Shown one piece after another: positions 46,456 to 47,473 of a DNA stretch of 64,000 nt. Under the pieces are notes generated by a model. It was given only the letters and a program-made list of their open reading frames with translations. It was not told where the DNA came from and searched no databases. How positions within the stretch are numbered: the first letter of the stretch is position 1; each line of letters opens with the position of its first letter. Source of the DNA: Escherichia phage ES19; the sequence record MN508616.2. One strand, 5' to 3'. The position numbers and the translations under genes were made by a program.

Positions 46456-46531
46456 TGGTCGAGGCAGTAGGGATCGAACCTACGACCTAGGACTTAGAAG
46501 GTCCTTGCTCTTCCTTCTGAGCTATGCCCCG
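46456..46531 (-). tRNA. tRNA-Arg (anticodon TCT)
   Basis: Hand-folded cloverleaf: acceptor CGGGGCA/TGCCTCG, anticodon loop CTTCTAA, T-loop GGTTCGATC; CCA encoded. Confidence 0.8.
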
Positions 46532-46535
46532 TAAT

Positions 46536-46611
46536 TGGGGTGACCGATGGGAGTCGAACCCATGACTACGAGAATCACAATCTCGAGTTCTACCAACTGA
46601 ACTACGGCCAC
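46536..46611 (-). tRNA. tRNA-His (anticodon GTG)
   Basis: Acceptor GTGGCCG/CGGTCAC, anticodon stem CGAGA/TCTCG with loop TTGTGAT, T-loop GGGTTCGACTCCC, discriminator C, CCA encoded. Confidence 0.75.
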
Positions 46612-46725
46612 ATTAATACCTACTCCAACAATCAAGATGTCTTCACACGAAATTAAGAGAAGAGTGATCAGTTCAACCCCTATAATCGCGTCAAGTAGAT
46701 ATTAATGTGACAGTTGTCACAAATT

Positions 46726-46800
46726 TGGCGGACGTGATAGGATTCGAACCTATAACCAATCGCTTAACAGGCGATCGCTCTGCCATTGAGCTACACATCC
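46726..46800 (-). tRNA. tRNA-Asn (anticodon GTT)
   Basis: Acceptor GGATGTG/CACGTCC, anticodon stem ATCGC/GCGAT with loop CTGTTAA, T-loop AGGTTCGAATCCT; CCA encoded. Confidence 0.75.
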
Positions 46801-46805
46801 AAATT

Positions 46806-46891
46806 GGTGGGGAGTGGTGGAGTCGAACCACCCGAGTCGCAATGACAATGGATTTACAGTCCACACCGCTACCTCTACGGGATAACTCCCC
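46806..46891 (-). tRNA. tRNA-Tyr (anticodon GTA), long variable arm
   Basis: Acceptor GGGGAGT/ACTCCCC, anticodon loop CTGTAAA, long variable arm, T-loop GGTTCGACTCC; CCA encoded. Confidence 0.75.
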
Positions 46892-46900
46892 AAATTAATT

Positions 46901-46975
46901 TGGTGGCCCTGGGTGGAATTGAACCACCATCTGGCGATTATGAGTCGCTTGCTTGAACCTTCCAGCTACAGGGCC
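46901..46975 (-). tRNA. tRNA with CAT anticodon (Ile by analogy with T4 tRNA-Ile, otherwise Met)
   Basis: Acceptor GGCCCTG/CAGGGCC, anticodon stem AGCGA/TCGCC region with loop CTCATAA, T-loop GGTTCAATTCC; CCA encoded. Confidence 0.7.
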
Positions 46976-46976
46976 T

Positions 46977-47052
46977 TGGTGCTGATTGACGGAATCGAAC
47001 CGCCGACCTTCTCATTACAAGTGAGTTGCTCTACCTACTGAGCTAAATCAGC
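46977..47052 (-). tRNA. tRNA-Thr (anticodon TGT)
   Basis: Acceptor GCTGATT/AATCAGC, anticodon loop CTTGTAA, T-loop GGTTCGATTCC; CCA encoded. Confidence 0.8.
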
Positions 47053-47057
47053 AAAAC

Positions 47058-47147
47058 TGGCGGAGGCGATAGGATTTGAACCTATGAGTCGCCGGAGCGA
47101 CTGCCGGTTTTCAAGACCGGTGCATTAAACCACTCTGCCACGCCTCC
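47058..47147 (-). tRNA. tRNA-Ser (anticodon TGA), long variable arm
   Basis: Acceptor GGAGGCG/CGCCTCC, anticodon stem CCGGT/ACCGG with loop CTTGAAA, long variable arm, T-loop GGTTCAAATCC; CCA encoded. Confidence 0.8.
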
Positions 47148-47149
47148 AG

Positions 47150-47223
47150 TCTCCGTGGCAGGATTTGAACCTACGACATTCTGCTCCCAAAGCAGACGCT
47201 CTACCAAACTGAGCTACACGGAG
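47150..47223 (-). tRNA. tRNA-Pro (anticodon TGG)
   Basis: Acceptor CTCCGTG/CACGGAG, anticodon stem TCTGC/GCAGA with loop TTTGGGA, T-loop GGTTCAAATCC; CCA not encoded. Confidence 0.8.
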
Positions 47224-47233
47224 TAAATTAAAT

Positions 47234-47307
47234 TGGAGCGGATAATGAGAATCGAACTCACATCATCAGATTGGAAGTCTGAGGTAATACCATTATACGA
47301 TATCCGC
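47234..47307 (-). tRNA. tRNA-Gly (anticodon TCC)
   Basis: Acceptor GCGGATA/TATCCGC, anticodon stem TCAGA/TCTGA with loop CTTCCAA, T-loop GGTTCGATTCTC; CCA encoded. Confidence 0.8.
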
Positions 47308-47312
47308 AAATT

Positions 47313-47399
47313 TGGTGCGAGAAGTGGGACTCGAACCCACAAGGAAATCATTCCGCAGCATTTTAAGTGCTGTGCCTTTACCAATTTGGCCATTCTCGC
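47313..47399 (-). tRNA. tRNA-Leu (anticodon TAA), long variable arm
   Basis: Acceptor GCGAGAA/TTCTCGC, anticodon stem CAGCA/TGCTG with loop CTTAAAA, long variable arm, T-loop GGTTCGAGTCC; CCA encoded. Confidence 0.8.
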
Positions 47400-47400
47400 G

Positions 47401-47473
47401 CTGGGAATAAAGGACTCGAACCTTTGCATCCTGGAATCAAAATCCAGTGCCTTACCAACTTGGCTAATTCCCA
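47401..47473 (-). tRNA. tRNA-Gln (anticodon TTG)
   Basis: Acceptor TGGGAAT/ATTCCCA, anticodon stem CTGGA/TCCAG with loop TTTTGAT, T-loop GGTTCGAGTCC; abuts tRNA-Leu with a 1-nt spacer; CCA not encoded. Confidence 0.8.

Follow-up and report, generated by a model that had tools for sequence, protein, structure and literature searches.

Escherichia phage ES19 (sequence record MN508616.2) carries a run of eleven tRNA genes, which was analysed within a window of 64,000 nt of this genome; all coordinates below are positions in that window unless another record is named. The genes lie on the minus strand at 46456-47473. It is very likely that they form an ordinary T-even tRNA operon, present as a T2-like allele that is free of the homing endonuclease gene segB and carries in addition a module of a leader RNA and tRNA-His, and that this composition reflects allele exchange and not a separate codon strategy. 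What is new is limited to two features: the single long "spacer" of the cluster contains a conserved folded RNA, and the tRNA-His gene is without the usual extra 5' G (G-1).

An allele of a mosaic locus

The order of genes in ES19 is Gln(ttg), Leu(taa), Gly(tcc), Pro(tgg), Ser(tga), Thr(tgt), a CAT-anticodon tRNA, Tyr(gta), Asn(gtt), His(gtg) and Arg(tct). The T4 record (NC_000866) is annotated as Gln-Leu-Gly-Pro-Ser-Thr-Ile, the GIY-YIG homing endonuclease gene segB, Arg, rnaD and rnaC. From upstream of Gln through Thr the two align at ~95% identity, with the same order of tRNA genes, the same upstream open reading frames (ORFs; trna.2-.4), and Gln and Pro genes that lack an encoded CCA in both, and they diverge from the CAT tRNA onward. 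There, segB of T4 sits where ES19 carries Tyr, Asn, the leader and His; the T4 tRNA-Ile resembles the CAT tRNA of ES19 in no more than the anticodon loop and the acceptor strand at the 5' side; the T4 tRNA-Arg has a different sequence; and T4 has no ORF between Arg and rnaD, where ES19 has one of 116 amino acids. The encoded 3' ends differ as well. T4 reads TAA after Ser and has no CCA after Ile, whereas both genes encode CCA in ES19, so that the host CCA-adding enzyme would be needed for two tRNAs (Gln and Pro) compared to four in T4. Blocks of paired (compensatory) substitutions relative to T4 are also seen in Gln and Pro, in the anticodon stem of each and in Pro in the T stem as well, while the remainder of both genes is identical.

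The arrangement in T2 (GenBank LC348380) is Gln-Leu-Gly-Pro-Ser, an ORF, and then CAT-Tyr-Asn-Arg followed by the same 116-amino-acid ORF as in the window. Its tRNA-Asn is 100% identical to that of ES19, its tRNA-Tyr differs by 2 nt and its tRNA-Arg is nearly identical. In contrast, T2 has a 133-amino-acid ORF at the position of Thr, and it is without the ~190-bp module of leader and tRNA-His found here between Asn and Arg. T6 carries Gln-Leu-Gly-Thr-Met(CAT)-Tyr-segB, with a tRNA-Tyr 1 nt different from that of the window in the same neighbourhood and with segB directly after Tyr; Pro, Ser, Asn and His are absent from the stretch of T6 that was compared.

The exchange of such alleles has been followed experimentally. 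SegB cuts preferentially within the tRNA-Asn gene of T2L and weakly at the 3' end of other tRNA genes, and in mixed infection it replaces a ~1250-bp block of T2L (tRNA-Met, Tyr, Asn and Arg together with two ORFs) by the T4 allele (Brok-Volchanskaya et al., 2008, PMC2330249). The tRNA locus is non-essential in T4 and T2 and is reshuffled by SegB (PMC2330249). The block swapped by SegB homing is exactly the interval where the window and T4 differ, and the eight tRNAs of T4 are therefore one allele of a mosaic locus, with T4 as the unusual allele. By sequence comparison, the window is a segB-free, T2-like allele in which Thr is retained and in which ~190 bp of leader and tRNA-His are inserted between Asn and Arg. 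The difference in gene content from T4 very likely stems from a homing-endonuclease-driven exchange of the block from Ile2, as the CAT tRNA is assigned below, to Arg, and reflects no separate codon strategy. Furthermore, since its tRNA-Asn is identical to that of T2 and contains the preferred SegB site, ES19 should be a recipient of segB homing in co-infection with T4 or T6.

Relatives and prior annotation

ES19 is placed by sequence in the genus Tequatrovirus (T4-like). Over 24 kb it shows 99.4% identity to Yersinia phage fPS-65 and 99.1% to HP3.1 and HP3.2, and 1.4 kb around the cluster is 100% identical in at least 14 deposited phage genomes, including fPS-65 and the Escherichia phages vB_EcoM_G29, YUEEL01 and U115. 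The cluster region is at least 99% identical in 57 records and at least 80% covered in 265, while the stretch of Asn, gap and His is covered to at least 80% in 186 records; about 190 deposited genomes share the exact arrangement. The flanks are those of T4, with trna.2-.4, ipI and 57B on one side and the e.x genes on the other, and the flanking ORFs as in T4. All eleven tRNAs are annotated in the identical Tequatrovirus records, and the cluster is therefore a known, common and routinely annotated one; it is the commonest tRNA arrangement among the sequenced T4-like phages of E. coli. Its value is as a correction: comparisons with T4 only are misleading.

A structured leader RNA upstream of tRNA-His

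The cluster had been described as tightly packed with 1-9-nt spacers, which did not hold. By ARAGORN boundaries the spacers measure 0, 5, 10, 1, 5, 1, 9, 4, 114 and 4 nt in order, that is 0-10 nt apart from a 114-nt gap between Asn and His (46612-46725). The part of this gap next to tRNA-His is a 95-nt element, referred to here as the His leader, and is predicted to fold into a 14-bp terminal helix P1, which ends at position -1 of tRNA-His and encloses the helix P2 and the hairpins P3 and P4.

The four-helix model was tested on an alignment of 15 copies (12 distinct) made without structural guidance. A scan of IMG/VR with a leader-core pattern returned only 5 contigs, and the diversity was drawn from the annotated phage collection. 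Across the helices 88.3% of cells are paired, compared to 32-45% after a shift of the partner strand by 1-3 columns, although the model was derived from the same sequences and the copies are few and related. P1 is paired in 99.4% of cells, and in three of its pairs both partners have changed; the 4-bp hairpin P4, whose loop UCAUGAU is conserved, is paired in 100%, with such double changes in two of its four pairs; P3 occurs as two unrelated sequence variants which are both able to pair; and P2 is a weak helix. The covariation score was reached by none of 500 shuffles, with the caveat that no more than a few evolutionary events may lie behind the double changes. An independent prediction by RNAalifold also contains P1 and P4. 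In addition, the leader of the window folds with -32.7 kcal/mol (z = -4.36), and none of 200 shuffles was as stable.

The leader is present in 355 phage records from at least four genera of the Tevenvirinae and is almost never annotated. It travels with tRNA-His into other genera (Karamvirus, Gelderlandvirus and Jiaodavirus) at 80-92% identity. A covariance model built for it finds exactly one copy at each leader-bearing locus and none in T4 or T2, and scores 104 bits on the sense strand compared to about 16-20 bits on the antisense strand at the loci with a reported antisense match.

The gap could instead be a mere spacer that holds a promoter or a DNA-level palindrome, for instance a recombination or endonuclease site. 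P1 is indeed also an inverted repeat in the DNA, and the leader marks one edge of the insertion relative to T2. This explanation is quite improbable. In some sequences P1 contains U-G pairs at five positions, which would be C-A mismatches on the opposite strand, and the structure thus makes sense only on the strand that carries the tRNA sense. Moreover, half of the P4 pairs covary, P3 has been swapped for another sequence that still pairs, the scan found no sense-strand promoter site in the leader, and both architecture and position match the stable RNAIII of phage T5, which is known from experiment. A promoter was also rejected as a candidate on its own account, as a TTGACG motif in the leader is not conserved in the Klebsiella phage copies in addition to the lack of a sense-strand site. 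Two further candidates were set aside. A decayed tRNA or a known RNA family was rejected, as an Rfam scan at E<=10 over 45750-46760 gave no match in the gap and ARAGORN made no call there; and a hammerhead-like core, proposed from the motif CUGAUCA, was rejected by eye because it lacks the conserved G and because the second P3 variant does not contain the motif.

T5 RNAIII and the RNAs C and D of T4 suggest by analogy that the leader probably becomes a stable RNA upon release. A cut by RNase P at tRNA-His would leave the 3' end of the leader fully paired in P1 and hence presumably protected from exonucleases. A bolder reading would make the ~190 bp of leader and tRNA-His a mobile two-part RNA module, in which an undescribed class of structured RNA and a tRNA without G-1 work together, the leader controlling whether, and in what way, the tRNA obtains its 5' end or serving as a regulator or decoy, and the tRNA acting as a decoy for, or an antidote to, a tRNA-directed host nuclease in place of ordinary service in translation. 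We regard this as rather unlikely.

Several observations on the surroundings of the leader can be added. In Salmonella phage STP4-a (L008, 407-500) a leader copy of 107.8 bits is followed by sequence other than tRNA-His, so either the leader can occur on its own or its tRNA partner has been lost there. RNAalifold also suggests a possible pairing of an upstream CUGUCAC with GUGGCCG (46605-46611), the 5' acceptor strand of tRNA-His, by which P1 would become longer and the tRNA fold would meet a competitor. Relatives infecting Enterobacter and Salmonella (L005 and L006; 189-307) have a further unannotated stretch of ~110 nt between tRNA-Gln and the leader, and Klebsiella phage Roth76 (L003, 1675-1770) has a second unannotated spacer of 96 nt between His and Ser; the leader model gave no match in these extra stretches of L005, L006 or Roth76.

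A tRNA-His without G-1

The identity of tRNA-His in E. coli depends mainly on C73 and on G-1, the latter being encoded in the gene (PMC9976931). Cleavage of bacterial tRNA-His by RNase P at -2/-1 leaves G-1 opposite C73 and thereby an 8-bp acceptor stem (PMC5499578, PMC9976931). The tRNA-His of ES19 has the GUG anticodon and keeps C73, and it lacks an encoded G-1 preceded by U-2. Its alignment with E. coli hisR shows a gap opposite G-1, with T at -1, A at -2 and a 7-bp acceptor stem.

G-1 is also missing in all the leader-bearing relatives, in Kosakonia phage 305 and Aeromonas phage Ah1, in T5 and in mycobacteriophage Bxz1. For a broader sample, viral contigs were scanned with an acceptor-independent signature of tRNA-His and the genes were aligned with their flanks. 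All ten tRNA-His genes that stand alone or in small clusters have G-1 and are probably host genes at prophage edges, while within clusters of at least five tRNAs G-1 is present in 13 of 19, absent in five and unclear in one. The proposal that phage tRNA-His generally lacks G-1 was therefore rejected; genes without it are a minority that recurs among phages, and this state is fixed in T5, Bxz1 and the T4-like lineage. Similarly, U at -1 was rejected as a special conserved mark of phage tRNA-His, as T stands at this position in seven of the eleven tRNAs of the window. A U (T in the gene) at -1 is a generic preference of RNase P. A search of the accessible literature found no paper discussing phage tRNA-His without G-1.

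The extra tRNAs could be passengers of the homing-endonuclease block exchange with little or no selective value, tRNA-His being a non-functional relic. The non-essential, SegB-shuffled nature of the locus in T4 and T2 (PMC2330249), the differences in gene content among near-identical phages and the lack of G-1 would all fit such a view. Nevertheless, tRNA-His forms a perfect cloverleaf in at least four genera, and its anticodon and T stems show compensatory changes across genera, which argues that the tRNA fold is under selection. Furthermore, the conservation of tRNA-Tyr extends from phages of E. coli to those of Klebsiella, and the Rfam scores are typical of intact tRNAs, so that this explanation is very unlikely.

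Codon supply and counter-defence

By analogy with T4, the block would be transcribed on the early/middle strand as polycistronic precursors, of which host RNase P would cut the 5' ends and host nucleases trim the 3' ends, while the host CCA-adding enzyme would complete Gln and Pro. Besides the eleven tRNAs, such processing could release the homologues of rnaD and rnaC and, probably, the His leader of 95 nt. The set shared with T4 (Gln-UUG, Leu-UAA, Gly-UCC, Pro-UGG, Ser-UGA, Thr-UGU, Ile2 and Arg-UCU) would then read A-ending codons, which the AT-rich phage uses often and E. coli seldom. In addition, Tyr and Asn may top up the two amino acids most over-used after Lys, and some of the cluster tRNAs may double as replacements for host tRNAs destroyed by tRNA-cleaving defence.

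Codon usage was counted in the 77 long ORFs of the window, which hold 50 kb of coding sequence. The codons read by the tRNAs shared with T4 are enriched relative to E. coli, AGA 4.5x, UCA 2.5x, AUA 2.4x, GGA 2.3x, ACA 2.25x and UUA 1.9x. The most over-used amino acids are Lys (1.88x), Tyr (1.66x) and Asn (1.46x), with the codons UAU at 2.3x and AAU at 2.45x. Demand therefore accounts for Tyr and Asn among the three extras, and does not account for His.

Several points weigh against an ordinary operon that supplies tRNAs. The codon counts come from a window dominated by early-strand genes, and the E. coli K-12 frequencies that served as the reference are approximate. His is under-used at 0.79x the E. 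coli level (CAC 0.35x, CAU 1.1x), and a tRNA-His without G-1 is a poor fit to the supply model, given that loss of G-1 lowers charging by the E. coli histidyl-tRNA synthetase (HisRS) more than 100-fold (PMC5499578). The promoter scan found no convincing sigma-70-type promoter directly upstream of Gln, and we infer the transcription, processing and charging of the cluster tRNAs from T4.

The original prediction took His, Asn and Tyr, the three genes present here in addition to the T4 set, as a sign of a codon-supply strategy distinct from that of T4, serving the late genes. The enrichment of Tyr and Asn, and of UAU and AAU, relative to E. coli speaks for it. On the other hand, T4 is equally AT-rich and is without these genes because of its segB allele (PMC2330249), and T2, T6 and hundreds of close relatives vary in tRNA content within one genus, T2 having both Tyr and Asn and T6 having Tyr. 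As the locus is mosaic, as His codons are not enriched and as the His gene lacks G-1, the claim is not upheld, and a strategy of this kind is unlikely.

Tyr, Asn, perhaps His and also Thr could alternatively be kept mainly as a counter-defence, replacing host tRNAs cleaved by nucleases or acting as decoys, and not for codon matching. The proposed targets are Septu and the retron-Eco7 PtuAB for Tyr, and the PARIS nuclease AriB for Lys, Thr and Asn. Septu cleaves tRNA-Tyr in the variable loop, and T6 escapes it by SegB-driven amplification of its own tRNA-Tyr, whereas this escape is closed to T4, where a tRNA-Tyr gene is lacking (Chihara et al., 2026, PMC13096335). The tRNA-Tyr of T6 was detected and tested experimentally in that work, and its overexpression or amplification protects T6 against Septu (PMC13096335); the tRNA-Tyr of ES19 is the near-identical gene noted above. 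However, Septu cleaves the tRNA-Tyr of T6 too, and its wild-type copy number is insufficient for escape (PMC13096335).

AriB cuts E. coli tRNA-Lys(UUU) and Thr(UGU), and secondarily Asn(GUU), at U36AAUC|N41, while His(GUG) and Pro(UGG) yield minor products, and variants of the Lys, Thr and Asn tRNAs of T5 rescue infection (bioRxiv 10.1101/2025.02.04.636281). The tRNA-Asn of ES19, like that of T5, has G39 instead of the U39 of E. coli asnT, which breaks the UAAU motif near the AriB site. This is suggestive only. More speculatively, Tyr, Asn and His are three of what we take to be the four GUN/queuosine tRNAs targeted by colicin E5 (see also PMC10264068). Counter-defence also gains from the failure of demand to explain His, and it loses from the fact that supply alone accounts for Tyr and Asn. 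It is a real possibility, although we would hold it to be somewhat less probable than its converse, and the supply and counter-defence models are not mutually exclusive. An ordinary operon altered by allele exchange is compatible with the proposed use of its tRNAs in both ways. As phage tRNAs emerge as counter-defence tools, a conserved coliphage tRNA-His without G-1 raises the question of whether it is charged or has another role.

The tRNA genes and their ends

ARAGORN finds eleven tRNA genes in the cluster and none elsewhere in the 64 kb, and an Rfam scan of the same 64 kb with RF00005 returns the same eleven and no others. The Rfam scores of ten lie between 59.9 and 74.1 bits (E about 1e-10 to 1e-14), while tRNA-Tyr is marginal at 30.3 bits against a gathering score of 29; all eleven are above the Rfam threshold and form ARAGORN cloverleafs with a 7-nt anticodon loop. 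The run is thus real, far beyond chance and correctly located, with one interval overlooked that is not a spacer. The number, order, identities, strand and interval of the genes agree with those of the original prediction, which had been folded by hand, and its His, Asn and Tyr candidates are called by both programs. CCA is encoded in nine of the eleven genes, and reading the 3' ends bears out the lack of CCA in Gln and Pro. The strand of the cluster is also that of 69 of the 77 long ORFs. The features of the region are listed in Table 1.

Table 1. Features of the tRNA cluster of phage ES19 and of the adjoining RNA block
Feature	Position	Strand	Evidence and remarks
tRNA-Gln (UUG)	47400..47473	-	ARAGORN; Rfam 67.4 bits; CCA not encoded: discriminator G, then C, then first base of Leu
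tRNA-Leu (UAA), class II	47313..47399	-	ARAGORN; Rfam 64 bits; CCA encoded; one C/T difference from T4
tRNA-Gly (UCC)	47234..47307	-	ARAGORN; Rfam 65.8 bits; CCA encoded; identical to T4
tRNA-Pro (UGG)	47149..47223	-	ARAGORN; Rfam 69.7 bits; CCA not encoded: discriminator A, C, T, then Ser
tRNA-Ser (UGA), class II	47058..47147	-	ARAGORN; Rfam 62.6 bits; CCA encoded (47058-47060), TAA there in T4
tRNA-Thr (UGU)	46977..47052	-	ARAGORN; Rfam 72.9 bits; CCA encoded
CAT-anticodon tRNA, putative Ile2 type (lysidine-dependent, would read AUA)	46901..46975	-	ARAGORN; Rfam 59.9 bits; CCA encoded (46901-46903)
tRNA-Tyr (GUA), class II, irregular D stem	46805..46891	-	ARAGORN; Rfam 30.3 bits; CCA encoded
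tRNA-Asn (GUU)	46726..46800	-	ARAGORN; Rfam 74.1 bits; CCA encoded; identical to T2 tRNA-Asn
Linker after Asn with small predicted hairpin GUGACAACUGUCAC (46707-46722)	46707..46725	-	RNAfold
His leader, 95-nt conserved structured RNA element	46612..46706	-	Alignment, pair counts, folding, covariance model
tRNA-His (GUG)	46536..46611	-	ARAGORN; Rfam 65.1 bits; 7-bp acceptor stem, C73, CCA encoded
tRNA-Arg (UCU)	46456..46531	-	ARAGORN; Rfam 66.1 bits; CCA encoded; T2-type sequence
116-amino-acid ORF between Arg and rnaD homologue	46087..46437	-	phrog_3355, E 8e-53, family of unknown function
Homologue of T4 rnaD (stable "species 2" RNA)	45975..46090	-	88/119 T4 positions identical
Homologue of T4 rnaC (stable "species 1" RNA, tRNA-like)	45830..45968	-	138/139 positions identical to T4
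Terminator-like G+C hairpin followed by T run, end of RNA gene block	45756..45779	-	Sequence scan; conserved in T4

The CAT-anticodon tRNA had been read as tRNA-Ile by analogy with T4. The identity stands, whereas the analogy is weak since the T4 tRNA-Ile is substantially different. In the ARAGORN structure G1 and C72 are paired, so the tRNA is not an initiator. Among host tRNAs it is closest to ileX/ileY and to neither the elongator nor the initiator tRNA-Met. It matches full-length in 5,424 of 5,426 complete E. coli genomes, at a median of two places per genome, and all the E. coli matches listed are annotated as tRNA-Ile. It shares with E. coli ileX the acceptor start GGCCC, with C4-G69 and C5-G68, and an identical anticodon stem-loop, GCGACTCATAATCGC. 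We take these two base pairs to be determinants for TilS. Compared to E. coli tRNA-Ile2 (ileX/ileY), the identity is ~80% over the full length, with differences in the D and T arms. Judged by its match to ileX, assignment as an Ile isoacceptor of the Ile2 (lysidine) type is supported.

Downstream RNAs and transcription signals

The RNA block extends beyond the interval first described, through 45830-46437. The 116-amino-acid ORF is present in T2 (T2_136) and absent from T4 and has no Pfam match; it ends with a stop codon that lies over the first bases of the rnaD homologue. Both this homologue and that of rnaC are syntenic with T4. The rnaC homologue gives a weak tRNA-Sec-like hit at 45831-45923 in the Rfam scan at E<=10 and no ARAGORN call in the window. 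Phage G29 carries the same homologue under the annotation "tRNA-Lys(ttt)", of 94 nt, and ARAGORN makes this call there too; it is probably a mis-annotated tRNA-like stable RNA.

Upstream of tRNA-Gln, TTGCTTAA is found at 47491-47498 on the minus strand, and T4 has TTGTTAGA at the same place. The former presumably resembles the MotA-box motif of T4 middle promoters.

Likeness to the stable RNAs of T5 and T4

The closest parallel to the leader is found in phage T5, whose record (AY543070) lists a 106-nt RNAIII as a "stable RNA with unknown functions" that abuts tRNA-His at its 5' end. In each phage an RNA of about 100 nt adjoins the 5' end of a phage tRNA-His with U at -1, and in each a long helix joins the 5' and 3' ends and encloses internal hairpins, the terminal helix of folded RNAIII being 12 bp. 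The annotation of the T5 tRNA-His itself starts at U -1. T5 differs in having two further stable RNAs upstream of RNAIII, so that RNA1 (tRNA-like), RNAI and RNAIII stand in a row before tRNA-His (L024, 10285-10645), and the leader of T4-like phages is known from sequence alone. With filters off, the leader covariance model found nothing at T5 RNAIII (L024, 10285-10390), its best score elsewhere being about 12 bits (E about 1). The likeness is therefore one of position and shape only.

The RNAs C and D of T4, encoded by rnaC and rnaD, still have no known function (PMC3014915), and like RNAs I and III of T5 they have for decades been stable RNAs of phage tRNA operons without an assigned function. 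A covarying and widespread leader just upstream of tRNA-His offers a comparative handle on such phage stable RNAs, with T5 RNAIII as its counterpart in position and shape.

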